DNA of 54,998 nt, the filler included, from Sphacelaria rigidula (Eukaryota): assembly GCA_964200075.2 (NCBI GenBank). It is 5 parts of 5 records of this genome, joined end to end, with 100 filler letters (N's around TTAATTAATTAA, not from the genome) between each part and the next. Parts side by side here need not be neighbours in the genome. Positions count along the whole stretch, not along the records: positions 44,081 to 54,998 come from CAXNAA020005679.1; 4 more parts are not named here. One strand, written 5' to 3'. The translations under genes and the position numbers were made by a program. The notes below the pieces were generated by a model that had not been told where the DNA came from, made no database searches, and saw only the letters and a program-made list of their open reading frames with translations. Of the stretch, positions 23,437 through 52,289 are shown one piece after another. The stretch's first letter is position 1. Every line of letters starts with the position of its first letter.

Positions 23437-25426
23437 GACCTTCAATATGCTCCACACCCTGCTCGCAGAGATTCCGGAGCAGCACCTCCCGCCGTGCCCA
23501 GCAGAACCAGACGAGTCCCGCCTCTGTCGCGCTGCGGGAATGCTTGACGTGTGCTTGGCGGATCCCGAGCAAGGATTGGACTTTGTCCGCCCCGTACAAG
23601 CCTTTTTGTCGGACCCAATGCCTGCGGTCACAGCCCTCGCCCTTCGTGCCATCGCCGCTCTTTGTCGTGGCGATTGTCTTGACTTCGATGCAGCCCTTCG
23701 TATCGTTTGTAAGAAGGGCAAAGTAGCCCACACGGGGAGTGCTATGGCGACCCGGACGACGGCGCCGGAAGGCGAATGTATATGGGGGGACGCACGAGTG
23801 ATGGCTGCACTGGCAGAACTCTGCGGTGCGGGAGCTGAGGCGGCGGCCGCTGTAGCGGCTGCTGAGGCCGAAGATTCAGATGAGGATGAATCTGAAGGAG
23901 AAGAAGAGTGGGATATGGGTGCGGCGGTGGAGACTCTCCTAGGGTCGAATATTCGATCCCACCCGGATGTGTCCGTCCGCACGGCGGTGTACGCCGCGCT
24001 GGGCGCTCACCTTTCTGCCCTCCTGCGTGCCGAAGGAGTAGAAGAGGACGGAGGTAACGCGGGGGTTGTAGCTTCGCGAGTACGTGCATTTGTTGCCGAC
24101 GCACTGGCCGTCGAACCGGCGCTTGGTGCTCGCGCTAGTCTTGAGAGCGCTGCAGGGGCCATCCTGGTCGCGGAGGGCTTAGAACCAACCACCTGGATAC
24201 CGTTGAAACGCCGCCCACGAGGAAATGACAAGGCTGATGATGGAGATAGCAGTGGGGGGGGCAGTGGACAAGCTAAGGAGCACACCGGGCCGCCAAGTCG
24301 GCTGTCGGCGGCCCTGCCGGACCCAGATACCGTCCTTCAAACTTTCCGTTCGGACTCTTCGTCGTTGCCAGGGCTGGCAGGAGCGGTATTGTGGAGCTAT
24401 CCCGCGGCGTCTGACACTTCGTCGTCGACACCGGAGAGCGCAGAGTCCAGAAAGGGTATAGCTCGCCGGGAGCAGATGGCAGCCGACCTTGCGGAGTTGC
24501 TGGCGGCGGAGGGGGCCGGGGGGGGTGGACTCGGAGTCTGTCCATGGCAACGAGCAGCCTTGCCGCTTGGTGTTCAGAGGTATGTGGCACGATTTTTTGC
24601 CGCTTGCTTTGCTGCGGAATCGTCGGGGACTAGTGACCTTGAAGTTGTGGGTGCTGCAGTCAAAGCATGTGAGCGGGCCATCAAGGGCCTCCGCGGCGTT
24701 CCGAGCGCGTTGATATCTCTTGCTCTGGCGAGTCTGGCGAATTGCATTCCAGCTTCCTTTGCCCACGTCAAACAGGCGGAGGCAAATAAGGCCATCGACC
24801 GACTCCGCGCCGGCACCGTCGAGGGCACCACTTCTGCTTCGGCAAGCGGGGTAACAAATTCTCAGTCTGCCTTTACTGGCGACGAATTCATTCCGTTATG
24901 CGCGGCGGTAGCAGTACGAACCCTTCCAGAGGCAGAGGGTGAGCAGGTGATGGAGGCGCTGCAAGAAATTCACGCGTTCGGTGCACGGGTGGGAGCTCAC
25001 GGTGGCGGCGGAGGCAGAAAAGCCGCCATACCAAACGATGCGCTTTCCTTTTGGTCCGTGGTCGCGTTAGGTGTTGCGTCCGAATGGGCGTGCTTTTGCC
25101 CCAGTGCCACGGAAGCGAAGAAAGTAATCTCGTATGCCGCGCAGCATTTGCTTTCTGAACTAGCGCGAGAAACAGGATCAGCTCTCGTTGGCGCTATCGC
25201 TGAAACCTGGTTTGGCGAAGTCGATGGCACCGGCACGAACTTGCGAGGAGATGGTGCAATCGAATGGCCTGACCTCGATGTCGGAATCGCTCGAATCGGA
25301 GGTGGGGTTGCTGGGGTGGAGACGCCGGCGACATCGAGTGGCTCCAAGTTCCTTGCACTTTTCATGGGGCTGTCTTCGGTTTTGCCCGGCCTACGGTCGA
25401 CAGGAATGCATACAGAATTGCTTCAG
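23437..25426 (+). CDS. FOCAD: Focadhesin/RST1-like protein, internal exon
   Basis: Acceptor AAACAG|G is phase-compatible (NSR-TFNMLHTLL). Contains RAAGMLDVCLADPEQGLDFVRPVQAFL...ALALRAIAALCRGDCLDFDAA, the DUF3730-type motif. Donor CAG|GTAGTT. Confidence 0.85.
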
Positions 25427-25679
25427 GTAGTTTTGGTTGAGTCGGAGCGCGCCGACAGAGCCTGCGATGTATGTTAGAATCGTCACTGGGGTAGGCGTGC
25501 GTTTTATCCCAAGTCGACTATGCAGACGACGTCGGACCATTTCCGTCCCAGAACATGTCGCTTTCACCTACCACTGCTGCTTGGTCGACCGACAATGTAG
25601 CCCTGCGCACCGAGGTACGCAGCAAGTATCCATTTGCCCCCACTTTGTCACGCACGCGTCCGTACATGCGACCGCCCAG

Positions 25680-28257: not shown

Positions 28258-28634
28258 CATCCCAGCCCGCATCTTGGGCGGCCCAGCCTGTATACTTGAG
28301 AAACGGAAAGAACGAGGTTTTTGTCGTAGTTTTTCCTGCTTTATCCACTGCCTCTAAGGAGTAGAGGGGGGGATGGGGGGCCTGACACGCAGCTGGTAGG
28401 GCCCCTTGGTGGAAGTCGTTCCAGATTAACACATTTCGACGCAAGATAGCGGTATGCGCAGCAACGTTTGATGAGCGTGATGTCTTGATTTTGTTCACAT
28501 ATTGAAATACGCGATAGGCACGATCAGACTTCTAAACAACCTTCTCCTTCACCTTCGCTGCCTCATACCGCATGCCCCACAACTCAAAATATCAACAACA
28601 TTAAAAAACTCCCACCCTCCCCCTCCCTCATCAG

Positions 28635-30732
28635 GCGCATGCGTTTTTCTTCCATACCTTCGCGTCGGATGGTGACGCTCCTCGTGGGAGACATCCAGGG
28701 AGTTATGGATGGCACATCCCTCCGACCTAAAAGCGCAGCGGCGCGTGTGTGGGGTTGCCTAGCTGCCTTGGGCCAAGACGAGCGGTCCATTGGAAACCCC
28801 ACTCTAACAAACGCTCTGGGGTGGTCGGGTTGTAGCGGGGGCGGTGGTGGCGAGCGTGTGGGAGTCAGCAACTCGGAGAACTCGAGGCCAGTTGGTGGAT
28901 CGATCCGCGCGGATGCTCTGCGAGTGGCTCGAGAAGGAACACTCATGAACTCAGTGTTGACTAGGTTGCAGACGGTCGCCGAAGGCGGTGTCCTTGCTAT
29001 CGTTGATGCCGACGAGGCTTTGGGGAGCGATAGGGGTGACAAGGGCAAGCCTACGCTGCCTCGTGAGTTCGCGCGATCGGCGCTGGCTTGCCTGGAGGTG
29101 TGTGGCCATGCTGACCGTGCTCTTCGGGTGCCGCACTCGCAAATGGCCGCCGTGCTCGAGGCGTTGTTTGGAGGAGGCCACGGCGCCGCGGTTGAAACTG
29201 GCTGTGTCTCTCTTGTCCTAGCGCTGGCGGACAAAGATCAGATATACTCCACATGGCTGCGTGGTTGGCTGAGAGGTTCGAGTTTCATGAATCTTGCCCG
29301 CGAAACCCGTCAGCATTTCGTCTCGGTGTTCGATAGATTGGCGTTGAAACTGCCGACGGGTATAGTTAGTACCGTCATCGAGGACGTGTGGGGTGCTGTC
29401 TCCGCCGAGGTGTTCGCCGATGGTACTGATTCTGCAGCGCGTCACTCATCGACGAAGAGGAAGGGAGAGCCAGTTATGGGCCCTGAAGCTACCGTCTGTT
29501 CTGTAGACCTAGTTTCTTTATTCCTGTCTAGCCTAAGGAAAGCGATATTGGCCGAGAGAGGAGAGCCGAGTAAGGATCCCACATCGCCGGCCACCGTACG
29601 CGAGTCAATCACTGGCGTTGTGGTAACAGTGATCCTCCCCTCGTGTATTGTGGGGTATGCAGATCGCGGTGACCGCAACATCTCGTTCCTGGACAGAAGC
29701 GCACCCGACTACGCGCTATGGGACGCGCTGGTTGGCCTGCTCTGTTGCCTACCCCAGCATCGAGTGGAAGACGTAATTAACTTCAAACTTAGTGCGGCAA
29801 ATTGCGCCGCCACCGCGGCTTCCACGGCCTCCACCGATCGCAGCGAGCAAGCCATCAAAGCGTATCTTACAGCTAGATTGGCAGCGGCTACTCAGCATTT
29901 CTGGACGTCAACTGATGAGAGAGCTCAACTTTCGAGTGGCTCCTCGTCCGAAGCTGCAGTTAGGCTGGGCTATGTCACGCGGTGGGTAACGCGAAAAGGG
30001 AACGATCGCCGGGTTAGTACCATATTATTGCCGCACATTGCAGAAGGCCTCAAGCGTGTGAACTCAATGTTTGTCGGTGAGGCTGTCTCCTCTGAGTGGA
30101 AGGCCGGATGGCTCCGGACGCAATTAGATACCGCGGGGCTGCCTGAGATCTGCACTTCTGAGATGTTCGCCCTGCTGGGCGCCGCGGCCGTGGTGTGGGA
30201 GCCTCCGTCAAGCCTCGCTCTGCTCGCGATGGGAGAAACTGCGAGTGAGATGGCCAGAAATCGTCGGTCAATAATGGATTCCGCTACAGATCAAGGAAAA
30301 ACAGGTGACGAGGATGTATCTCTGTCGATTAGCCTCCGGCAGGGGGCGTTGACAAGTCCTGGATCGCGACTACTAGCGCTGGGGGTCGCCGCACCGAAGG
30401 TGGTGACCAACGCTGAAAAAGGTTCCAATGGTGTCTCGACCGAAGTGTTGGCGCGATTGCTTCGAGTGCCGGGAATATTGCGAACTATGATAAGAGAGAG
30501 GATCGAGGTGATGAACGCGGGTGGCGACTGTCAACAAGGCGCCGTGTTGGAAGAGCTTGAGGAAGTGCGATTAGGCGTGGATCGGTTTATCGAAGGCCTG
30601 AAACATTCCCCCGCCATCCTAAGTGGCAGAATGTCGGGACAGTTTTCTGCGCATGCCAGCTCGATCGCGGCCGAGAGGGCGCTGGGCGTGTTGGCGCGGG
30701 TGCCCGATCGTGGTCGAACAGACGCCCTGTAG
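28635..30732 (+). CDS. FOCAD: Focadhesin/RST1-like protein, terminal exon
   Basis: Polypyrimidine acceptor CCCTCATCAG|G is phase-compatible with the previous donor. Open frame of about 700 codons ending in TAG. The four exons total 5483 nt, about 1827 aa. Confidence 0.75.
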
Positions 30733-33061: not shown

Positions 33062-33481
33062 ACCCCATCGGGGGTCCGCCCCTACAAAGCCGGGACGGAG
33101 CACGCCGGGTTCTCGCCGGACCAGGCTGAGGGAGAGGGAAGGAGGGGGGGGGGGGTATTTGATGCGCGCGTACCGAGATAAGCGTCTGGTGATTTTGAAC
33201 AGCTCATTTCGATGGTCAGCAGAATTCCGCCTGATGTTTTTGGTAAAAGGGCAATGCACATATTCCAGTCATTTTGTGAGTAGCGCTAGTCTTCTGGGTA
33301 TACTCTTTGTCTGCCAAAAGTGTACAGCAGTAGTGATCTCGTCCAATCTGTCCTCTTCGTGGGCGGGCCGTGTTTTCTTTGTATTGCTGAGATAGCGATT
33401 GCTTCTCATCTCTCTCCATAGACAGCAAATAAATCGTGGAATTATGGTTGGATGGCACTGCATTCGATCGTGTAGAGGGCT

Positions 33482-34506
33482 TGTTGCAGGTTGAGGGTCA
33501 CGCCCGGTTAAGCGCAACTTTTCGCTTAAGGGCAAGCGGTCCGGATTAAGGGCAAGCGCCCCAGACTATGGGGAAGCGCCCCTGGTTAGGGGGGAACGGC
33601 CCGGATTAGGGGCAAGCGCCCCTGACTATGGGGAAGCGCACCTGGGTAAGGGGAAGCGCACCCGGGTAAGCGGAAACGCACCTGGGTAGGGGGAAGCGCA
33701 CCCGGGGAAGGGAAAGCCCACCTGGGTAGGGGGGAGCGCATCTGGATACGGGCAAGCGCCCCTGAATATTGGCATCTGCCCCTAGCGACGGAGAAGCGAT
33801 ACACGTATCGTCATCCTATTCCCGAATCAGCCGAAGAATGCCAAACTGTCTAGGGCGCGCTAAGTGTAATGCGTGAGAGGACCGCGTGCTTAGAGGACCG
33901 CATCGGAATTTGAATATCCCTATGGTTAGGGTTAGGGTTACGGTTAGGGTTAGGGTTATGGCTCGTGTCGGCGTTATGGCCAGGGGCGTAGTACCTGCAG
34001 GGACTGGCCGGATTGGTTTTGAAAAACGTCGATCCTGAGGTGTTTGAACTACGGCGCGGTCCTCTAAGCACGCGGTCCTCTCACGCATTACACTAAGGAC
34101 CAACGATACCCTAACCCTAACCCTAACCCTAACCCTAACCTGTATCGTGTGCCCACGAGCCAGAGACACACATATCGTGGGTCCTTAGCACGCCCTAGAC
34201 AGTTTGGCATTCTTCGGCTGATTCGGGAATATGTTGACGATACGTGTATCGCTTCTCCGTCGCTAGGGGCAGATGCCAATAATCAGAGGCGCTTGCCCGT
34301 ATCCAGGTGCGCTCCCCCCTACCCAGGTGCGCTTCCCCTTATCCAGATGCGCTTCCCCATAGTCAGGGGCGCTTCCCCGTAGTCAGGGGCGCTTCCCCGT
34401 AGTCAGGGGCGCTTCCCCATAGCCAGGGGCGCTTGCCCTTAATCCGGACCGCTTGCCCTTAAGCGAAACGTTGCCCTTCACCAGGCGTTGCCCTTAGCCT
34501 GCAACA
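33482..34506. mobile_element. Foldback-like element with TGT...ACA termini, inverted arms of about 330-400 bp built partly of about 20-bp subrepeats, and an internal (CCCTAA)5
   Basis: The left arm TGTTGCAGG..CGCTTAAGGGCAAGCGGTCCGGATTAAGGGCAAGCGCCCC..GCCAAACTGTCTAGGGCG is the reverse complement of the right arm ending CCTGCAACA. Confidence 0.85.
33865..34092. mobile_element. Nested MITE with 37-bp TIRs and an internal (GGTTAG)n tract
   Basis: CTAAG|TGTAATGCGTGAGAGGACCGCGTGCTTAGAGGACCGC ... GCGGTCCTCTAAGCACGCGGTCCTCTCACGCATTACA|CTAAG. Removing it restores the symmetry of the host arms. Confidence 0.85.
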
Positions 34507-36325
34507 GGTCTTCGATGTGGTGGGACGCGTGCTGAGTCAGGTACGTCACACGGGCATTGGGATGCCGCCAAATGTCCCCCGTCTGTGGTACCACCTCTCC
34601 TGTGAGCACCTTGATCATGGTGGACTTGCCCGCCCCGTTTTTGCCGACGCAAGCGACGCGGGATGACAACGACACATGGACGGGAATGCCGAATAGGGTA
34701 GGGACGGTGTTACTGGGGTAGGTGAAGCCGAAGTGGCTCATCTTCATCAAAACCTTCCCCTTTGACTTGACACCTTCGATCGGTCCGGGCTGCGGGATCG
34801 TGAATTTCAGCTTGGGCGCCTTGAGCTCAAAGAACGACTTCGCCGAAGGGTTGACCGCCACGTACTCGTTCAAATTACCTTTGAAGTTGGTGAGCTTGAG
34901 GTTTTGGATGGATAGGATGTGGCTGCAGCAGTCGTTGAGGAGGCCGGAGTCGTGCGACACCATGATGGTTGTAACCTCGGTAAGGCTGTTGAGGTAGATC
35001 TTGTCCCACACAACATTGATCACATTCAAGTGATTGGTCGGTCCATCCAGCAGCAGTTTGTCAGCCTTTTGAAGCATGGCACGGGCCATAGCCAGCTTCA
35101 TGCGCCATCCACCCAAGAGGGTAGACACCGAGTGGTTCAGCTTCGCTTTGCCGTCATTCGTGACTCCCGCCGACGCCACCACCTCAGTGACCGCCACACT
35201 GTCGATGTTGAGACGCTGGATTTTCTCGTCCGCCAACACGTAGTCTACGTGCACGAGAGGTGAGACCGCTCTCCCTGAATATCAACCTCCACGAATACAG
35301 TACGGACCTCGGTCGGGTCGAGGAAATCCCCCACGGAACCGTTCGCGATGGCGCGCATAAGCGCCGTCTTTCCCGAGTCGTTACCGCCAAGAAGACCGTA
35401 CTTTTTACTACGCTTCAACCTCATCTTCGTGTTGTGGAGAAAAAAGTTGATACCATACGCAAGTGTGAATTGGCAGTTGTACAGTTCCTCTGCACCCTCG
35501 TCATCATCCGCGACCTCGTCCGCAACCATCATATCAGCACACTTGTTTCTCAGTGGCTCCGCCGCTCCGCTAGGCGGAGCCTTCGTTGCGATAAGCGACA
35601 GGTACCGGGGGACCTCCTCCCACTGTCCCTCGGAGGTGTGCTTGAGGTTCATGAGAGTGCTGCACATAGCAGCCACGTACGACACCACCACATCCGTGAA
35701 CTCGTCCTTCGCAAGAGAATGAACCACTTCCCGAATCGCGGCGGACACCAGAGCGCTGTCCGCTTTCCTCGAGTTGCTGTTTTGCATAGTCCGTTGAGAC
35801 GCATCAGCTGGGCGTAGGCGCGGTCAGCGACATCACGGGCCTCCGGTTTAGCGATAGTGCTGGCGGCCTTCTCGAGGGCAGGCATGAGGAGGGCAAGAAA
35901 AGGGCAGCATCCCCCGGCTCGTCCACCAGCTTACTCATGTTCTCGATGATCAGAGCAGACTGACGCTTGGTGGTGGTTTTCGTCACGCGCAGTCCACGAA
36001 GCAGCAGCGGCACCACCATGGCCAACGCGGGAGACTCCACCGATTGTACAAAGGCAACACCGGCCAAGTTGTGCATGATCTCAGGAATGTCAGAAGGGTT
36101 CACGACGGCCTTGACGATGTCGCCCGTCATGTGCTCCATGTCACGGTTGTCGATGACGTCGTAACCCGCCGTTATGGCCGCGACTGCAGCAGTCTTGACC
36201 TGTTTATTGGTGTCGCCGATGCACGGGGTCAGCGCGGGTACCACTCCGGGGAGAGTATAACCGAGCTGATTAGGAGCGTGGTCGCTGAATGAGGTGATGA
36301 TGTTGAGGGCCAGCACCCTAGTCTG
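34507..36325 (-). pseudogene. Translation elongation factor 3 (eEF3/YEF3-like ABC-F) pseudogene, intronless, truncated at both ends
   Basis: HEAT region (FVQSVESPALAMVVPLLLRGL, NMSKLVDEP), ABC1 (CQFTLAYG, YGLLGGNDSGKT, LLGGWRMKLAMARAML, LLLDGPTNHL) and start of ABC2 (SLSSRVACVGKNGAGKSTMIK, HASHHIE). Spread over four ORFs (about three frameshifts), with damaged signature and Walker B residues. Confidence 0.92.
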
Positions 36326-39700: not shown

Positions 39701-42700
39701 ACTCTGGTGAGGGAAAAGGAAAATTGTCCCGCCGAGATTTCCAATGCGGCTGAAACAACATGCACCAGTTCGACGATCAGTAGCATTGAGGTAGGTGAAG
39801 GTGCAATTTCTCCAAATAGAGATCCCGATGTGCGTAGCTCAATAGCTCGCAACAACCGGGGCAACAGTAATACAGCTCAGTGAGGATCAAGCGTGGCTGG
39901 TCCTACTCTCGATCTGGCAACCGTGCACGGAAGTAGATCGTCTGACAACGGTAACGATGTGCAGGCATGCATGACTTTTGATTTCCCCGATAGAACCGTT
40001 GAAGAATCCCGAAATACTTGACGACAAACAGATCGTGATAAGTCTTCGTGTTGCGCAGTGCGAAGGGTAGTTGTAGAAAACGGTAACGACCCAAGCGGGA
40101 CACCAGCCGAAAGTATTTATGCGCTGGATCCAAAACCTGGCAGTCATTTGCCCACAGAATCAGTTTCCGCCCACGTCCCAGCGACAATATCTAGTCAGGT
40201 AGCGCGAGGAAGGAAAGGACCTTACTTGGAAAAAACATCACCAAGTCATGGGAGGGTAAATGATTTTGAACCGCAAAGAAAGTTCGACCTTGGTGCAAAT
40301 ATTTTCTGCCCCAACGGCAACTAGAACCTTGGAGGCTAAGGCTTTGGTGGACACGGGAAGTCCCGCGACGTTTATCCATCAAAAGATATGCAAAACAAAA
40401 TGGTTGATGTCGGGGCAGCCACCATCGAAGGTGTCCGAGAGATAGACCCGGTATCCTGGGGTGGCTTTAATAGTGTCCCGTTGTGTACTTCTTCACAGGT
40501 GCAGTTGAATATCAGACTGTGGTCTAGAAGACCCGAAACACGAATGTCAGTTCAGAGCGGACGAGCATGTTTAGTAATATACGCTCATGTTGTACCTGAT
40601 GGAACAATGAATCATTACATTCTAGTTGGACGTGATGGCCTTGGTTTATTACCCGTTAGAATGTATCGTGATGTGAACCGACGAAAAACAGTCATGACCT
40701 TGGAAGGAAACAGCATTGGAGTCATCCTACGATAGGGGGGGGGGTATGGTGGGCCATTGGTTGCTCGAAATTTCGAGTCAGATCGTCGTTGAAAGCAGCA
40801 ACGGTTGTTCGAACAAGCTTGTTGTGGATCAATAACGCTCACCCNNNNNNNNNNCACTTATGAGCCTCTTTTTTCGTGCAACCAAATACCCCCCCCCCCC
40901 TATCGTAGGAGGACTCATTGACTCTGTTGATCGTGCGTTTGCGGAACAAGTCCGCAATGCTGTTGGTTCTGCGGAACCGATATCGTCAACAGCTCAGGTT
41001 ATTGTAGTGTACAATGGATGTCATGATGTTATACGACCTGATAAATTGTCATGGATTCCTGTCAAACTATGTGACATGGACGGAACGCCCACCGAGAGTG
41101 GCTGTTAGTATGTATCTCTGGATCCAGATTGGTCCCCACTTGAAATTATCTTAGGAACAGGTGAATCCATTATCCCTCTCCGGCATAGCGGTTTCGAAGG
41201 ACAGATGTTGACTCTGAACACCACTTTAGGTTTGGCTGGAGCACCTTTGGTACCATGCTCTCTGGAGGACGTTGAGGTTTCTGAAAGAAAGCATCTGAAA
41301 CCCGACGATATATTCACGGTAGACTAAAATCTAGAAGAACCCCCGGTCTTGGCAGACTTAAACGATGAACAACAACAAGTACTCACGGATATGTGGGTGA
41401 AACTTCCCACACATGTGCGAAAATTAAAGTTTGGGTTGAAACGTGACATTGGACGGTTGACGACATTGAGATTTTGGGAGAACATTTGTGCAAATATTCA
41501 CATCGATTTTCAAAGGACAAGATGGATTTGGGGTATTGCACAGTGGATCCGTTCAAGATTGAACTCAAACCGGGGACGAGGTCCGTAAAACAGCGCCCGT
41601 ATCGTCATAACCCGGCGGTCCAAAAAAAGTGCAAGAGGAAATTGATCGTATGCTTGCAGCAGGAATTTTAAGGAGATAATATTCCCACTGAAGAAGTCCA
41701 CTCGTAGTTGTGAATAAAGCGGATGAGTCCCTTCGGATTACGTGCAACTATAAGAAACTCAACGACAGTAAAATAATTCCGGTGTTGCCCATTTCAATCA
41801 TTGAGGAACTCTTGGATGAAGTGGGGAGTGCCGAAATATTTTCATGTTTGGACATCACTTCAGGCTACTTTAGCGTGGCTATACCCCAGGACTCAATTCC
41901 ATTGACGGCGATTTGCACACAAAGTGGTATCTATGAGTGGTTAGTTACGCCGATGGGGTACAGTGGAAGTTCAGGTTGGTTTCAGGCTATCATGGCGAGA
42001 ATATGTAAGGGTTCGGAACGATGTCGACTCTATATTGATGATGTTTGTGCTTTCAGCGTAACAGGCAAACAGCATATAGAGGACTTGGAAGGTCTTTTTG
42101 AACGACTCACTAAGTACAACCTAAAGTTGGGATCTAAAAAGGCATATGTTGGGACGAAAGAAAAAAATTTCTAGGGCATCACATTTCCGCTGAGGGAATT
42201 TCTCCGGATCAGGACAAGGTACAGGCTTTAATCAAGATGCCAATGTCGTTTGATGTATCTATGCTCAGATTGCGATTGGGAGGATTGGGGTACTACCGGA
42301 AATTCATTCCCTTAATGGCTGCGAGACTCAAACCTCTAACGCAATTGCTGAAGAAAGGGACTTGTCCTCAATTGTCTAAGGACATGAATCTATAGCAAAA
42401 GAAAAGTTGCATTCCTTGACAGGTACAAATGCCTTAGCCTTTCCAAACTATAAAGTTGCAGCTTTGGAGAAACGCCCATTTATGCTTACCACGGATGCAT
42501 CACTGGATGGTCCGGGTGCGGTGGTGGAACAACGTCCAGAGGATAATACGTTCCGACCTCTTGTTTTTCTAAGTAGAGGAACCCTCCTAAACTAAAGAAG
42601 TTAGAGTGCGTTCGAACAAGAGGCAGCGGCTATTGTGTGGGGCATAAAAAAGAACAAACCACTTTTCTATGGTGTGCCGTTCGAGATTTACACTGATCAC

Positions 42701-43790
42701 CAACCTTGGCGAAATTTATTGAGTCTTGCAGAGAAGGTTCCGAGAGTTCAGCGTTGTCATGGCTTTTGAAGTGTGTACACTTATGGAATTAAGTACAAGT
42801 CAGGACGTTTGAACGCAAATGCGGATATGTTGTCTCGTTTACCACAGCCGCTGGGTGATAATGATATGTCTGGGGATGCCCGAATCACGGACCCGAGAGA
42901 CATGGACGTATATATCATTGGTGCTGGTGGAACATGGCGAGCATTTTTAAAAACTCGATTAGGGATGGACACGTCGGATCTGCAGCGGGTACCCGCGAAT
43001 CGAACTTGAATGGGCTGGACCCTGGATCGTTTTTTTTATATTGGGGGGAAAGAATTAAGTGCAGTCCCGCTCACGACCTCTGAAAACGCTGACCTAAAAT
43101 GGATCGAGCTACAAAGAGCGGGGGGTCGTACTAGTGCACGAGTGGGAAGAGAAAAAGCGGACAAGTATTCGTACGTAGTACTGGATGACACACCGTGAAT
43201 TTCTCCCTAGAGTAATGACATGGTCAGAGGACAACGGGAACAAGGTTTGACTTTGGGTGCATGTCCGATCACGGAATTAGGAAGATGATTGCTACAACCT
43301 CAAGAACACAGAGTCGCGCTAGTAATTGAACCCACAACCGATGAGGGAAGCAGCGGTGCGGGACCATTACCATCGGTGTCATCGACTCTGGAAGCAGAAG
43401 AAGCCTGACATTTTGGCAAACGTTTATGCCAGAAATCGGCAAACGATTGGGCCCATGTACAGCAGGAAGGTCTCACGTCTAGAACGATCATCGAATATTT
43501 GAAAAAACGGGTGACGGTGTTGACGAAGGATCAAGAAAAGGGGGTTCCCACACGAATTGACCTATCCGACTTCAAAAAATTACTGAAACAGGGAACACTT
43601 TTGGAAAAATCCGACGGAGGTTTAATATTAGTAAAAAAGCAAACGCCAATGCCCAGTTAACTGGACCGAAACTCGGGACAATTCGAGAGGTATTTGGGTG
43701 AAGAGCCAACCAGAACGTATGTGCCACTGCTTTTGAGACCTTGAGTAATGGACCAAACTCACGAAGAAGGAATTCATTTGGGGAAAGGTA
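36763..43790 (+). mobile_element. Decayed Ty3/gypsy LTR retrotransposon (gag-protease-RT-RNase H-start of integrase)
   Basis: Knuckle remnant CVNCGSSEHPLARDYP (about 38654), protease ALVDTGSPATFI (about 40340) and ILVGRD, RT LDITSGY..PMG..YIDD (41710-42174), RNase H LTTDAS..YTDH..NANADMLSR, integrase start YVPLLLRP..THEEGIHLG (about 43780). Many stops and frameshifts. Confidence 0.92.
40719..40916. mobile_element. Sola-like MITE (GAG...CTC termini, 4-bp TSD ATTG) inserted in gypsy pol
   Basis: ATTG|GAGTCATCCTACGATAGGGGG ... CCCCCTATCGTAGGAGGACTC|ATTG. Removal restores the frame EGNSI-DSVDRAF. Contains a 10-N gap. Confidence 0.8.
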
Positions 43791-44080: not shown

Positions 44081-45175
44081 ACACCCGCCGAGAAGACCCT
44101 CCCCACGTCGTACCGACAAGACCGGTCGTGGCCTTCGTCGGAGGACGGGGAACGGAGGAGTAAGATGGGGCAAACCTGGTATTCAGGGGGGAAGCCACAT
44201 CGTTTGGGGGGAAAATCTCTCACACCCTTTCGGATCATAGCGAGTGCTTTCGCATGTGCTATGTCGTCTCGGGATCCCAGTTACATTGAGAACAGAACTA
44301 CTGAGAATAGTCAAAAAATATTTTCAGGTGGTAATGGCGCTTAGACACCCGTGATTGATTACACCTATCCTGGGTAGTGTTGAACTCGCAAAAAGCTGAC
44401 CCACTAAAACAAAAAAGTTTGCTGGCTGATGAGAATGCGTAGGCTCTTCTCCCGTCGACCAGCAACCGCTGACCTACTGGACACCGGGGGTTCTTACATA
44501 CATCTTAGATCGAGAGTTCTGTCATGATACAGTGTCCAGGCTGGTACTCGGTTCCCATCCTTCTTGTACAATGCTTATTCTACGACATGAATTTTTTCTA
44601 CTCGAAAAGAGTGGGGCACCTTAAAGTCGGATCCGCATTCAAGGAGACAATAAAAAAAACATGAATCGGAACTAGGACTGACCACAGAGAAAAGAAGAAA
44701 AAACAATAGAGAGAAAAATATATATATATAAAAAGCCATACTACACAGCGAGGAAAAGGGCACCACAACTCCGCAAGCTGTGAAGAAATAGAGGAGCCGC
44801 GTAGGCGCTATAGGACAAGAAAGGGCTATGAAAAACAAGCATAGAAAACAAGCAAAAGAGGCTATGGAACCCGGGGGAGATGAAAAAAAACTGCTAGTCC
44901 AACAAGATCCATCCGCCAGAAGTATATATTTATATTCAAAAAAGGGGGGAAAGGGAGCGAAGAAGGGAAGGAAAAACAAACTCAAGAAACGACTCGTACC
45001 TTCTTTCTGAAACTTTACATATGAAGAAAATGCAAGAAAACCGGAAACAAAAGGATGTAGACTGCACATTCTCAAGGTACCGTGTTAGAGGGTTGATAGT
45101 CCACGCTTTATCCCATCTAGTGTCATTCCCTTTTTTTCTCCTTGTTTTTTTTCTCTTTTCCGATTACGCCGCTTC

Positions 45176-46405
45176 CTAGCTCGTGACTGACGGTGTTGCC
45201 GTCTCGCTCGACTGCGCTAGCTGTTGGAGTTCTCTCCGTGACAACTCCTCCCAGTCCCCGTCGTCGTATCGCACTCTCCAGAAACGCTTGCCGTAGTCGA
45301 ACACTTGTCCCTTCTGCTGGACCCCACCGAAATCCTTCCAGAACGTGGAACCTATGGGGAACAAGTTCAGGGCATCACTGCATGACAAGGGGGCATGGTA
45401 GATGTTCGGGCGAGGCGGCGTACTTGGTGTCTTGGCTGGGTGGTGAATGCACCAGAGTGCGTGAAACCCACTCAGTTGCAGGGGTGTGCAACTTTCCAGG
45501 ACCTTGCCCTCCGGAAGCCAGTCTGACGTCGGCCCCTCCTGAGTCTTTCCTTGGTACTCCCAACCTGCACTTCCTTTCCCTGATTTGCACTCGCGGCGAT
45601 TCACTAGGGTAAGGAGGCGGAGTGTGGAGTTTGGCGAAGACGATATCTTGAAATCCGATCCCCATACAAACTGGGCAAACTCGCCGGCAATTGAGCGTCT
45701 CAAGTACGGCGGCCGTACATGGTACGGTTTTACATCAGACGGGGCTACTGTGTGAGTACGTAGTTTTCGTCCTTGCATCACTACCTCGAGACTGTGTCCG
45801 ACCATCAGTACCTTTTTCACCTTCCAAGGTCCCGTATACCTGTCGTGCTGCAGCTTCCTGCCCCTGCCATCTCGATACGTGGAGCTTTCACTCACCCTCA
45901 CCATTACCAGATCCCCTTCCGTGACCGACACGCCTGCTGATGGTCTCGAGATGGCTGCATTGCCCTTCTCCCGCGACGCTGCTTTTGCCCCCTGCCTTTT
46001 GTCCATCGCCATCCTTACCTCGCGGAGGTTCTGTTTGCGCTGTTCAACGAAGGCATCTAGTCCCTCGCTCGGCTCTGCTTCTTGTGAGAGGGGCACGAGA
46101 GAGTCTAGCGATGTGCGCGGTTTGCGGCCGAACAGCAGCTCAAAGGAGGACATGTTAAAGGGGAGCGATGTGTCGGGCAATGTGCGCTTGATCCAGAGGG
46201 CGGGTGAGACATACTCACCCCACCTCTGGGGCCACAGCCTACATTGTTCCGATAGCATGTCTAACAGCCATCCCCCAAGTTGCTCGACCGCTTCCTGACC
46301 GCGTGGGTGGTCTGACGGCCCAAAGGCGATGTCCGCCTTCAACCACCTGCACAGATGCGTGACGACATCGGCCCTGAACTCTTTGCCCCTGTCGCAGCGC
46401 ACCAT
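45176..46405 (-). pseudogene. Integrase C-terminal half (rve core, GPY/F-like motif, chromo-like, Tudor-like)
   Basis: 409-aa open segment, frameshifted from the upstream H2C2 segment (46438-46878). Confidence 0.85.
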
Positions 46406-49309
46406 TTGTGGGACACCAAAAGTCAGGCATAACTCTGCTAGGATGCGTGCGATCTCGTCCGCTTCCTTTGATGGCAGAGAAAATCCGAACGAGAATCGGG
46501 AAGTACCAATAGAATGTACTTGTTGCGCGAGTGTGACGTCACATCAATCGTAAGTAAGTCAATTTCCAACTCGGCCCATGGGTGTAGAGTGCGCCCCGGT
46601 CTCATCGCCATTTGACGGCTGCTTGCCTTCTTGCGTCGTCTACAGCTGCACGATAGCACGTACTGTCTGGTGTCACGTGTCATAGTAGGCCAATGAAAGC
46701 GGTCGTGCATCAGAGGAAGGGTGGCGCCTACTCCGACCTGTCCATGGAGTGCATGCACGAGTGCCAACAGGTCAGCTACCATCGTTTTCGGGACAACTAG
46801 CAGGTCCTCATTGTTGGCTGCTCGGTACCACAGTATACCTTGCTCGTCTACTTTGTAGTCTGACCGTCTCTCATTCACCGTCTCTGTGTTTCACTGCCTG
46901 CAAGATCTGACATCACCTGTTTGAGAAAGGAATCCCCTTGTTGGTGGGGCCGGAGATCGCCCACGTTGGTGAGTATCCGTAGTGCACGATCGATCGCCAT
47001 TGTGTCCGTCAGGTCCGGATCCGCTAACCCCGTTGGCATCTCTCCCCCGGCTAGGAGCACTTCACCCACTTCTACCCTCTCACCGGTTGTCGGCGGAACG
47101 ATCGGTTTCGGCACCTGTAGCGGTACTTCAATCAGCGTTGGCTCTGCGGACGGATTCGGGGCGACCACTCAAGGAGTGAAGGGCAGGGGTGTTGTATACG
47201 CAGCATCGGGGGGTTGCAGGCGTACTGACGGTCTGCGAGTACGAGTCGAACGGCGCACAAATTGGTTATCAGCGATGGCTGCGCGTTCTGATAAGGGGAG
47301 TCACCTCAGGGTTGAGATGTCCAGTGGGTTGTTGGAGCTCGGCGATATATGCATGCTTGTGCCTGCGCTCACTGACGTACCCGCTCCTTCTGCTTGTAGT
47401 TTCGGCAGTCGTTGTCCCGCGAGTTATGGTCCCTGTGGGCCTACAAATCCTGCCGGCGAGCCCGACGTGAAATCGTCCGGAAATGAGTCATCAAAGTCGG
47501 GCTGTGGCTCACTCGCGTGTGGGAGTCGGGACAGTGCATCTGGCAGCACATGTTTGGACCCCTCCCGCCACTGGAATTCGATGTCATACTCCATTAGCCG
47601 CAGGACCTCCCTGTCCAACTTGGGGCAGAAATCGCGGCTACGGAACAACCATATAAGTGCCCCGAACAGTCAGTGACCAACGTGAACCTTCTTCCAGCTA
47701 AGTATGGTATATATTGGTGGATAGCCCACAAGACAGTCATGCACTCTCGTGCTGCGGGTGCTCTGCGCGAGTCGTTGCGAGAGAACCGATGGCTGCCAAA
47801 TTCTACGATGCGTGTTTCGCACCCCACCGGCCGCAGCAGCACCGCCCCAGCACCCACCTCGCTAACGTCTGTCTGCAGTATAAACGCGTTGTTGGGATCG
47901 GGCAAGGCTAGTACCTTCGGCGAGGACAAGGCTGCTTCGAGGGCTTGGAACGCCTCCTCCTGCTCTTTATTCCACGGTATGGACAGCTTTCGTGCTCGCT
48001 TGGACGCGAAATCTTTGTTGCGTCGAGCAGGTCGGTTAATGGGGCGGTTACTAGGCTGTATTTCTCAACAAACTGGTGCAGGTACCCTGTGAGGCCAAGG
48101 AAAGTACGTAGTTCCTCGACGGTGGATGCTCTGGGCATTTCGGCGATGGCGGCGAGCTTGGATGGCGCGGGTTGAAGGCCGCTGCTATCTACCAGCATGC
48201 CCAGAACCTCTTGCGACGCCGATGCAAAAATGCACTTGGCGAAGTTCACCGAGAATATCGCGACTAACAAGCGTTGTAACACGATCACGAGTAGAGCTAG
48301 ATGCTCGTCCCAGGATGTGGTCGCGATGAGGATATCATCAAGCCAGGTGAACACCCCATCCATCTGTCCCACCGTATCTTTTACGCGGCGGGTAGAACTG
48401 TTGGACCTAAGCCTGCTCGTGTAAACTCGTATAAGAGGCCATCTGCATCTCGGAACGCCGTTTTGAAGCGGTCTTTCTCCACGATTTCGATGTGGTGGAA
48501 ACCGGAGGACACGTCGAGTTGGGTGAAGTAACGCTTACCTTTGAGGTCGTCGAAAATGGAGTGCATATCCCCGAGACCCCCGCTGTCCTACACTTAAGAG
48601 TTTGCTCAGTTCACGCTAATCAATGCATAAGCGCAAGGTGCCGTCTTTGTTTTCCACGCATAGGCATTGGGCTGCCCATGGGGAGGTTGAGGGTCGAATG
48701 ATCCCGCGATCAAGAAGCTTGTATATCTCTTCGCGGATCATGTGCCGTTCCTCCGGGGGAAACCGACGTTGCTTAGCTGCGAATGGCGTACATGACTCGT
48801 TAGTCAGGGGGAGCTCGAGTTCACCGTTGATACAAGCGGGAACCCGCTTGGGGTCTGTGGGGAACATTCCAGCTTCGATAAAGCTCAGCAGCGTGTCTAC
48901 CAGCTCTCTCTTTTCCGCTGCTGCAAGTTGGCCCATGTTGGCGTCCGCCTCGTTGACCTTGGGGTTTGTTTGGGCCGAGAAACTACTGTCTGGACATGAG
49001 GCGCGGGGTGGGGGGTCCACGGGGGGGTCTGTCGTAGATGGATGTGGGTCAAACAGTTAGTGAAACCTGGCGGGGTCACGTATGTTCAGTGCTATCATAC
49101 GCGCGACAGTTCCAGTAGGCTTCACCGCTACCTGCTCCGTACATCTATTCACAAGTTTTCAGTACACCGGCGACCCCGGCTGCCACCACGATACTCCCTT
49201 CGCGATCCCCACCTTTGCCCCCTTGTCCGGATCGAACTTTGCCTGTGGAAGTACAAGCACAAGCTGCCTATCCTGTGGTTGAGGACCGATCGCGGCTGTT
49301 TCTACCGCG

Positions 49310-49566
49310 GAGTCATCCTACGATAGGGGGGGGGGGGATATTTTGGGCCACTTCTTGCACGAAGTTTCAAGTCAAATCGTCCTTGAAAAGAGCAACGGAT
49401 GCTCGAACGAGCTTGTTACAGATATACAATATAACGCTCGTTCATACCGATTGACACCGTTTTGAACCAAATACAAGCGCACCGCGAGTGTGGCAGGTCG
49501 TCTGACACACTTTTGAGCCTCTTTTTTCGTGCAATCAGATGCCCCCCCCCTATCGTAGGATGGCTC
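49310..49566. mobile_element. Sola-like MITE, second copy, inserted in the other gypsy pol
   Basis: CGCG|GAGTCATCCTACGATAGGGGG ... CCCCCTATCGTAGGATGGCTC|GGCG (4-bp TSD, one mismatch). Removal restores the frame GFISAA-VETAAIG. Confidence 0.8.
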
Positions 49567-52289
49567 GGCGGCGCTGATGAAGCCGCTGAGCATGATCATT
49601 TGTCCGACCAAACGCAGCTTCCACTCTAGGGTGCTGTCGTATTCCCAAGCTATGTCACGGTAGCTGGGATAGTTGTGGGTGGACGGACAAGCGGGAGCAG
49701 CTAGGGAGGCGGTGGTTTCCGTCGTGGTCTTCAGGGCTACTAATATATCTTGAATGTGGTAGGAAGGATTTTCACTCGTCAGGAACGGGATCCACGGCGC
49801 CGCTGGCGAGGGGCAGAACCCTTTTTCTGGAGCGAAATCTATAATACTGCTGTTGTATCGGAAATAATCTGCACCTAAAATGAAGCCGTACGACAGGCCC
49901 TCCACTACTCGTACTGTTACATTACGGACCCGTGAGTCGAAGGTCAAATGCAAAGGCACAGTTACGGAACCGACTCTGCGCATTGGGGGGACCTTACTCT
50001 GGGATGGGTTAGCTGCACAGAAAACACCTGCCGCCTCAGGGTTTGGCGTATCGTCCATGATGTTGGCCTTGCGCAAGCTGCGCCACAACGCTCCTGACAT
50101 ATAGTTGCCACCTCCCGCTCCCGGAGACGCCGTCGTTGCCAGATCTCGTCCGTCATCCAAAATTGGCTTCCACGACGCTGGGATATTGTGGTGGCGCTGG
50201 GTCGGCGAAGGTTCCCCAGGTCAATTGCACCTGTGGTGCGTCTTCACCCCTCGAGTTTTGCCAGCGGCGGCCTCGCTCACGGATGCGCTCATCATATCCT
50301 CGACGTCGTCGTCATGGTCTTCACCGATGAGACCCAGGTCGATTGCTGCCAAGCATTGTGCCTCCGTGAGCGCGGCTAGCCGGCGTTGGGGAATAACCGT
50401 CTTGCGGCGGGCCGGTAGGCCGCTGTAGTGTGCGGCCGGGATGATGTCGTGCGTCCATGGACAAGGGGTGTTGCCCCGGTGACGGCATGAGCCGGTGAAT
50501 GCGTAACCGAAGCAGATTTTACGATCACGTAAGAAGGTGACCACTGCCTCACGTCCTGCCGCAATCGGCGGTATGGATGGCTCGGGAGTCGAGGCCGGAC
50601 CAACTGGCTGGGTGGATGCGGCGGATGTCGATGACGGCGAAGCGCTCCCAGACGGCGGTGCCGGGGGGTTTGTGCTGCAAATCTACCGCGCGGGGTGCGG
50701 CGGCATGGCCCGGAGTCGTGGCGCGAGGACCGGGGTTGATGGGTGTCGAACCTTGCTGCATGAAGGGGGGCGACTGTAGCAAGTTCCTTACTTCCTCAAG
50801 TGAACATAACCTGCCAGGTCCGGCGCCGCGGTTGATAGTACGCGTTTGGGGGCGAGCGTGACTGTCGTCGCTGTATGCCACGTTGCGGGCGCACACGATA
50901 CGTCTGAAGTCCTGGTAAAGACTCTTGGCTACGTCTCCCCTTCTTTGCATTGCTAACCCCATTGGATTGTGCCACTCGCTTCTCAGAGGCTGCAGCCTGG
51001 CCCAGATTACGTGTCTTTTCATGGAGGATCGATACTAGACCTAGCCTATCGACCGGGTTAGGTAAAACGACTCGGATAGTACGATCGTAAAGCTCGCTTA
51101 GCTGCCGGGCGGAGATGAATCGCCAGAAATACGTGGCTTCGGCACTGTATGGTCGGTCCGGGTTTGCTAAACTCGCGCGAAATACTAGCAACACCCGTTG
51201 CCCTCACGCACTCCACGACTCGTTGGGTCCTAAGATGATGGAGTCCAGTGCAGCTTGTATGAATTTAGTGGCCCCTTTCGTCATCACTTCTTCACGGACG
51301 AGGATCCGTAGCCAGTCGGTTATAGTAACGGATTCATGTGGGACGGTATCGGTTTTGCCCATGATACGATACACGTCTACTCGATCCGCTGCGGTTAGGG
51401 ACGTGAACGTACCACTAGTTTCTGCCAGCAACTCGATTAGGAGTTCGCGCCGGCGGGCGGAGTACTGATCTGTCTATGCTACCCACTCACCGTTGACGTA
51501 TTCATCCTCCGACAGTTTCAAGACTACCTGGTCTATTGCACGCAGCGTCGACCATATTTAGTGTTGCAGCACGGCAGCGCTGTTGATAACCGATAGTTCC
51601 CCCGCGCTTGGTCCTGCATACACTGGGCATGGTCGACCGCGCGTAATACGCCTACGTACCCGCTTGCTCACCTTCGCTAGCTGGTTAGATTTCAGACCTT
51701 GAACCGCAGCTCCAGCTGCTGCTCCTGGTGCTTCACCATCCCAGCGCCTTAGCCACCTGGCATCCGCCTGCTGATGGTACGCCCTGTGCTCCTTCCGGTG
51801 GTCGCGACATCCCGTATCAATGCCCATATTGATATATATATATATATAAAAAAATGGATTGTTGGCGGCAGAGGCTACCGACAGACGGCTCCCCAAATCT
51901 TTTGATGACGGTAATAGGTATTGATAGATAGCTCACCTAATCTATCGATGACGGCAAGGACTATCGATGGATGGCTCACCAAATCTATTGATAACGGCAA
52001 TGACTAGCAATGGATGGCTCACCAAACCTATTGATCACGGCAATGGCTATCGACATATGCATCCCAGCGTCTATTGCGGTACACGATGTCCATCGATGGT
52101 GGGTGATATTTACCTATTGTAATTGCCATAGGCTCTCGATCGACTATTGCAACATCTACTATTGCCCCTTGTAATACATATCAATAGATGTGTTTCACCA
52201 TCTATCGTGTGCGATAATATGTATCGATAGATTTTCCCCCGCGTCTATTGCTGAAGCAATGGACTATTATTGTGTCCATTGTCCAAGTG

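Follow-up and report, generated by a model that had tools for sequence, protein, structure and literature searches.

The window, the whole stretch of 54,998 nucleotides from the Sphacelaria rigidula assembly that we analyzed, comprises five segments, each about 11 kb long, with spacers of N between them. Its last piece (CAXNAA020005679.1) carries on the minus strand the decayed internal region of a Ty3/Gypsy retrotransposon, which ends in a chromo-Tudor tail and is made up of the following parts.

44162..51808, minus strand: decayed Ty3/Gypsy internal region; the alignment to other copies stops at both coordinates
50873..51632, minus strand: Gag N-terminal remnant with 3 stops (tblastn against Ectocarpus P0182 residues 10-263, 46-51% identity)
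49567..50121, minus strand: degenerate protease region (44% to P0182 321-506), so named from its position
48025..49308, minus strand: pre-RT region and reverse transcriptase with 4 stops (56% to P0182 506-937; weak RVT_1 match)
47597..48064, minus strand: RNase H (PF17919, E 4e-24; PF17917)
46944..47274, minus strand: RNase H-integrase spacer; nothing in the window aligns to P0003 residues 954-1391 between the matches of their flanks
46627..46794, minus strand: integrase H2C2 zinc-binding domain (PF17921, E 5e-11)
46316..46504, minus strand: portion of the integrase core that lies in the tail frame (PF00665, E 3e-4); frame change near 46500
45716..45922, minus strand: integrase C-terminal SH3-type barrel with GPY/F-like motif (PF24626 weak, E 0.03; SH3_Tf2-1)
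45656..45706, minus strand: conserved spacer helix (helix 86-94 in the model; Trp invariant in 15/15)
45440..45622, minus strand: module of likely chromo fold lacking a methyl-lysine aromatic cage (residues 308-368; from the fold search and cage columns)
45386..45439, minus strand: Pro-rich linker, the least conserved part of the tail
45215..45385, minus strand: PTM/DIR17-like Tudor with flanking helices (PF21743; in the model, four strands between two helices)
45176..45178, minus strand: Pol stop codon
44162..45175, minus strand: long 3' untranslated region, common to subfamily A copies (72-82% identity)

The order of these parts, gag-PR-RT-RH-INT, is that of Ty3/Gypsy elements, and the best PDB match of the relatives is Ty3 Gag-Pol; the protease region has no Pfam match. 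Relative to P0182, an Ectocarpus protein of 1881 aa that served as the alignment reference as the closest named full-length relative, the window copy contains 11 stops over eight aligned pieces as well as several frame changes. Both LTRs are missing, while other copies continue into a 429-bp LTR, and the 3' untranslated region is truncated about 170 nt short of the PPT and LTR. Given the stops, the frame changes, and the missing LTRs, we consider the window copy dead and its tail a preserved remnant: only in the tail is the reading frame intact, the upstream part being broken. Contigs from two sequencing runs that we guess to be RNA cover the tail; they are not evidence of its transcription. 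A short repeat at 44100-44160, where the element is truncated, occurs at very high depth. At the gag end (50449-50514, minus strand), a C-x8-C-x7-C-x3-H arrangement resembles a finger of the CCCH type more than the CCHC knuckle that is usual there, and it has no Pfam match.

Other copies, found in the 244-Mb genome of the same alga (27,214 contigs), complete the picture of the family. Its 429-bp LTR has TG..CA ends and adjoins PPT and PBS-like motifs, and an element pieced together from several copies measures about 11.1 kb. Of four solo LTRs, one has an exact 4-bp target site duplication (TSD), two have a match at 3 of 4 positions, and one has none. The LTR at L036:4477-4905 and those in L145, L156, and L161 are preceded by a PPT and followed by a PBS-like motif, as in tandem copies with one common LTR; this type accounts for 3 of the 26 full LTRs among those listed. 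The copy at L047:924-1450 has 97% identical LTRs and has lost gag, with the protease region placed directly after the 5' LTR.

Elsewhere in the window, positions 41629-42844 (plus strand) hold the remnant of a distant RT/RNase H element with 24-38% identity to the family described here. Long frames with Focadhesin/RST1 DUF3730 matches at 22254-25474 (plus strand) probably represent a host gene, and a 747-codon open frame at 28489-30732 (plus strand) has no significant Pfam match. A 20-bp unit forms two inverted, foldback-like arrays at 33475-34513, and a 42/85-bp tandem repeat family is found at 12354-13684 of the window and at L043:9109-9690.

A first-pass annotation of this DNA had described a Gypsy integrase that ends in a chromo-like module followed by a Tudor-like module, and the motifs that it quoted do lie in one frame (45176-46543, minus strand) that is open over 455 aa. 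Along this frame, the SH3/GPY-F barrel is followed by the helix, the chromo-fold module, the linker, and the Tudor. The 154-aa tail has at least 152 matches in its own genome, and both modules are spanned by 95 of the 150 matches listed, which argues against a chance arrangement. These tails fall into four subfamilies, A (including the window copy, about 80% identity), B (about 55%), and C and D (about 35 to 40%). The two modules co-occur through all four and in Ectocarpus, Nemacystus, and Sphacelaria relatives, the Ectocarpus sp. proteins P0182 and P0012 being examples that carry the same tail. Among 1.84 billion proteins, a profile of the middle module retrieved 242 cluster representatives at E values up to 0.001. 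Of the 150 representatives listed, 46 extend 70 residues or more beyond the module; the Tudor is present in 34 of them, in line with conservation of the tail in relatives. The 12 without a Tudor include one unrelated repeat protein; most of the others appear by eye to be frameshifted copies. P0135, a repeat protein among the representative hits, was judged a false positive. Wherever a relative is named, it comes from a brown alga (Ectocarpus sp. CCAP 1310/34, Nemacystus decipiens, or S. rigidula).

Between subfamilies A and B, pN was 0.17 and pS 0.77 (saturated) for the Tudor, and pN was 0.33, pS 0.63, and dN/dS 0.32 for the chromo module; for the linker, dN/dS was 0.47. These estimates compare 7 A with 7 B copies, the 49 pairs of which share one branch and are not independent. 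Judged from these substitution estimates, both the chromo module and the Tudor are under purifying selection between A and B, the constraint on the chromo module being weaker than that on the Tudor.

Modelled in full with AlphaFold2 (pLDDT 87, 91 sequences), the tail is predicted to fold into three separate domains. Residues 1-78 of the model match SH3-type barrels, including the integrase C-terminal domains of foamy virus and RSV (Z 6.4-7.5). Fold searches with the three-domain model were otherwise uninformative, as the rows were filled by the SH3 barrel or had an rmsd near 20, and a search of a viral fold library found nothing.

The identity of the middle module depends on the method. Sequence profiles did not support a chromodomain: Pfam gave no chromo match in any of 15 members scanned, PHROGs gave no chromodomain match, no PDB match was found with phmmer or a profile, and hhalign against 29 low-diversity Pfam-positive chromodomain stretches from the same genome gave no match (probability 0.6%). 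In the Atlas, chromo clusters appeared as leads at 0.83-0.84, ranked behind two phage clusters. Folded alone (68 aa, 93 sequences, pLDDT 88.8), however, the module resembles one kind of protein. In the best 50 rows of the VIA search, the top 38 are chromo or chromoshadow domains or proteins bearing them, among which we take GEN1, eEF3, and New1 to be chromodomain bearing. The best match is Oxpecker (rmsd 2.5, 59 aligned), whose Z of 7.1 lies below the tool's caution line of 8, followed by others such as Chp1 (Z 6.6, rmsd 1.8, 53 aligned), SUV39H1 (6.4, 2.2, 55), and HP1 (6.3, 1.8, 51), and the first unrelated row has a Z of 3.5. The top ten Foldseek rows are likewise chromo-type domains of Chd1, Chd6, or Swi6, all at E values of 0.037 or above. 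The predicted model has the three-stranded sheet and C-terminal helix of the chromodomain fold along with these structural matches. We accept a chromo fold in spite of a Z below 8 because the domain is small and its matches are all of one kind; on the strength of the predicted model, then, the middle module is likely a chromo fold. The chromo motif quoted in the first-pass annotation lies within it but stops short of the C-terminal helix, the best-conserved part, where most columns are 77-87% conserved.

What this module lacks is the aromatic cage. In a hand motif alignment to the CDY1 and MPP8 chromodomain sequences, cage positions 1, 2, and 3 correspond to L308, T334, and G337 of the window copy, none of which is aromatic. 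Over a 94-row alignment (the window copy plus the 93 of 150 representatives that cover the module), position 1 is aromatic in 0/83 rows and position 3 in 2/94; position 2 is Phe, Trp, or Tyr in 62/94, with Thr in the window copy. Residues 307 and 309, which flank position 1, are never aromatic. The three cage aromatics of group I (methyl-lysine-binding) chromodomains are accordingly not found here.

The Tudor was recognized from sequence. PF21743 (PTM_DIR17_Tudor) matches residues 398-441 (45221-45352) at 32 bits (E 1.1e-7), above its cut-off of 27.2, confirming that a PTM/DIR17-like Tudor ends this Gypsy integrase, and the genome contains 76 Tudor matches above the cut-off. Across 39 rows (the window copy, 27 representatives, and 11 longer relatives), F405 is kept in 27/39, Y426 in 29/39 (plus 4 with Phe), D428 in 36/39, and W431 in 32/38, while the other candidate cage column has Phe in 9/39 only. 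A Tudor profile matched no solved Tudor when searched against solved structures, and the cage register of F405, Y426, D428, and W431 is for this reason presumed from known Tudor structures.

Taken together, we consider it probable that the window holds a dead member of a brown-algal Ty3/Gypsy lineage whose tail serves as a chromatin tether, with a Tudor that reads a mark and a cage-less chromo fold that works independently of methylation. The tail of active members would, in the manner of chromodomain integrases, tether the integration complex to chromatin and thereby bias insertion. The Tudor would be the candidate reader of methylated residues. The chromo fold may be an old chromodomain that has lost its cage and acts without methyl-lysine recognition, contacting the nucleosome, DNA, or protein or providing a scaffold for the Tudor, possibly like the plant group II chromodomains. 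Methylation of H3K9 and H3K27, which chromodomains usually bind, is reported lost in brown algae together with DNMT1/3/5, while H3K4me3, H3K36me3, H3K79me2, and H4K20me3 are retained, according to the accessible part of the source (PMC13076208). Conceivably, a chromodomain whose usual ligands had vanished could lose its cage and yet persist, with the Tudor taking over the reading of marks, in this or another order. Among 20 flank stretches, several of which are internal sequence, no shared insertion target was seen, although the set is too few and too short to count.

The first-pass annotation had instead proposed two methyl-lysine readers, which would amount to combinatorial targeting. Both folds do come from reader families, cage position 2 is aromatic in about two-thirds of the family, and the chromo module has further conserved aromatics (W328, Y330, W342, F360, and W364). 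This proposal is nonetheless quite unlikely, since positions 1 and 3 are non-aromatic throughout nearly all of the family, the window copy has none of the three, and a separate Gypsy group with Pfam-positive chromodomains in the same genome retains F/W/F. Alternatively, the middle module might be a chromoshadow-like domain for dimerization or docking, acting on the integrase multimer or on a host factor, in which case any targeting would fall to the Tudor alone. The strong conservation of the C-terminal helix would fit such a role, as would the chromoshadow domains of Swi6, Chp2, HP1, and Rhino among the fold matches. Chromodomains proper score above chromoshadow domains, however (Z 7.1-6.1 versus 5.4-4.5), and the helix may simply pack against the spacer helix, so that we regard this as a minor possibility. 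Finally, rather than reading histones at all, the tail could bind an unmodified partner or a nucleic acid, be it cDNA, target DNA, or RNA. Chromo-like and SH3-like groups include binders of nucleic acid as well as protein (PMC11836899), the Tudor surface appears basic from the sequence of the window copy's subfamily, and the small flank set shows no insertion bias. Against this stand the exposed-looking aromatics and the Asp that the Tudor keeps across about 35% overall identity, and we find this explanation quite unlikely. The tether with a reading Tudor and a cage-less chromo fold remains our preferred account.

A second unusual feature belongs to a sister clade of the window copy. An insert of about 300 residues lies after RNase H and before the zinc finger of the integrase in P0003, P0010, P0012 (Ectocarpus), P0013 (Nemacystus), P0179, and subfamily D, and is absent from the window copy, subfamilies A and C, P0009, and P0182; the subfamily B loci analyzed ended short of this stretch. 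Copies of the insert include the following.

Own genome: L031:2756-3645, L032:4869-5882, and L034:5223-6143; also in L113, L115, and L120
Proteins: P0003 961-1256 and P0010 498-805; also in P0012 and P0179

With one subfamily D insert as the query, 153 matches were obtained in the same genome. In an integrase tree from a quick search (42 rows, 462 columns, no outgroup, with the remaining rows unlabelled for the insert), all 16 insert-bearing rows lie on one side of a branch with an SH-aLRT of 97, and all 8 rows labelled insert free lie on the opposite side together with P0182.

The insert looks like a very divergent C5-cytosine DNA methyltransferase domain. In the Atlas, PF00145 DNA methylase clusters took 30/30 hits (score 0.94, 179-189 shared features), and in PHROGs, DNA methyltransferases were the only matches of 4/4 inserts (E 0.004-0.3). 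Among 7 wholly or partly insert-bearing proteins scanned with Pfam, P0012 alone gave a match (E 0.31). No DNA methyltransferase match was obtained in the PDB, with a single sequence or an insert-only profile, or in NCBIfam. A first insert profile was uninformative, being swamped by RT and integrase, and when shorter relatives of this insert were sought, a single family member came up. Along the insert, putative counterparts of motifs I, IV, VI, VIII, IX, and X occur in order. Motif IV reads G[DN]AC, with the Cys but without the Pro, in P0010, P0012, P0013, P0095, and P0179; the Cys is absent from 4/4 of the P0003 cluster and from 8/8 full-length inserts printed from the S. rigidula genome. Glu is mostly kept while Asn-Val is not, so that neither the catalytic Pro-Cys nor Glu-Asn-Val is found as such. 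The genome's only two PF00145 matches (L171 and L172), perhaps from a DNMT2-type gene, are short exon-like pieces and were rejected as inserts.

Most likely, to judge from these residues, the insert is a dead or altered enzyme that is kept as a binder of DNA or SAM. It is unlikely that, in an ancient lineage with a cage-less chromo fold and a Tudor, one clade also encodes a C5-cytosine methyltransferase whose activity persists in the Cys-keeping families and which marks or protects the element's own cDNA. If true, transposons would carry DNA methyltransferases of their own in a clade whose hosts reportedly lack DNMT1/3/5, and part of the trace 5mC that has been reported for kelp could be explained in this way. 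Even as a dead enzyme kept for binding, the insert calls for a caveat on the view that DNA methyltransferase genes are missing from brown algae.

Brown algae are reported to be without 5mC, H3K9me, and H3K27me, as far as the available text of the source goes (PMC13076208); with these lost, the marks read by chromodomain retrotransposons elsewhere are gone. With an integrase that joins a cage-less chromo fold to a Tudor, one can test directly which of the remaining marks (H4K20me3, H3K36me3, H3K79me2, or H3K4me3) a transposon uses, and ChIP-seq data for testing these marks are already public. In addition, the published reading of a Tudor instead of a chromodomain would become one of a Tudor added behind an old chromodomain, which bears on the number of times that brown-algal Gypsy elements have gained a reader. 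The Tudor half of the architecture has already been published; going by the parts of the literature available to us, the cage-less chromodomain and the methyltransferase-like domain of sister families appear to have been overlooked so far.

The published element is Gypsy-10_Ec32 from Ectocarpus sp. 7 (Gypsy-10_ES in Repbase), described in 2025 as the first TE with a Tudor, which lies at its C terminus; its length is 11,528 bp, its LTRs measure 636 bp, its TSD is 4 bp, and a homolog occurs in Tribonema minus (PMC12477816). Like the window family, it is a brown-algal Gypsy element of about 11 kb with a Tudor at the C terminus of Pol, gag-pol possibly in one ORF, a 4-bp TSD, and many deletion derivatives. 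The LTR differs (636 bp there versus 429 bp here), and only a Tudor is named, with neither a chromo fold before it nor a methyltransferase-like insert mentioned in the accessible portion of that paper (PMC12477816). Comparing descriptions rather than sequences, we think it very probable that the window family belongs to the Gypsy-10_Ec32 lineage. The possible novelty raised in the first-pass annotation is thus partly preempted: a Tudor-bearing Gypsy element was known, while the chromo-plus-Tudor tandem is absent from the accessible portion of the same paper (PMC12477816). In open-licence papers and preprints, as far as their available text extends, no further integrase with a Tudor or with a chromo-plus-Tudor tail was found described, and the TE fusions in one preprint are mainly with Chromo and PHD (bioRxiv 10.1101/2021.11.30.470311).

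Three other Ectocarpus Gypsy lineages bear chromodomains, and the Tudor lineage is placed apart from them (PMC12477816). The chromodomain-bearing lineages are reported, in the part of that paper available, to be unrelated to chromoviruses, so that the chromovirus frame in which the tail was initially viewed probably does not hold. ECR-1 and ECR-like elements are likewise brown-algal Gypsy elements with a C-terminal chromodomain (PMC11541908; bioRxiv 10.64898/2025.12.07.692804). ECR-1 differs from the window family in that its three-residue cage is intact and it has no Tudor, a domain unmentioned in the available text of both ECR sources. The Gypsy group with Pfam-positive chromodomains and an intact F/W/F cage in the S. 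rigidula genome (L084-L110) is possibly ECR-like; its integrase is no more than about 22-28% identical to that of the window family.

DNMT-bearing retrotransposons are known from Klebsormidium nitens (KnitGypsy-Dnmt3) and from Symbiodinium (PMC5890265; PMC12344493). They have a cytosine methyltransferase domain inside Pol, a likeness to the sister clade and not to the window copy. As presented in the accessible text, they are recognizable Dnmt enzymes that keep the key residues, whereas the sister-clade insert is very divergent, lacks Pro-Cys, is without the Cys altogether in some families, and comes from hosts for which the absence of DNMT1/3/5 has been reported. The consulted part of PMC5890265 makes no mention of Ectocarpus, brown algae, or stramenopiles, and no brown-algal case of a DNMT-bearing retrotransposon was found in the literature as far as its text was available. 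The cage-less chromo fold has its own counterpart in the plant chromoviruses Tekay, Reina, and Galadriel, which carry after the integrase a group II chromodomain without cage aromatics 1 and 3, according to the accessible part of the source (PMC3605345). These represent a different lineage with no Tudor after the chromodomain, and the chromo fold of the window family, unlike theirs, escapes sequence profiles.
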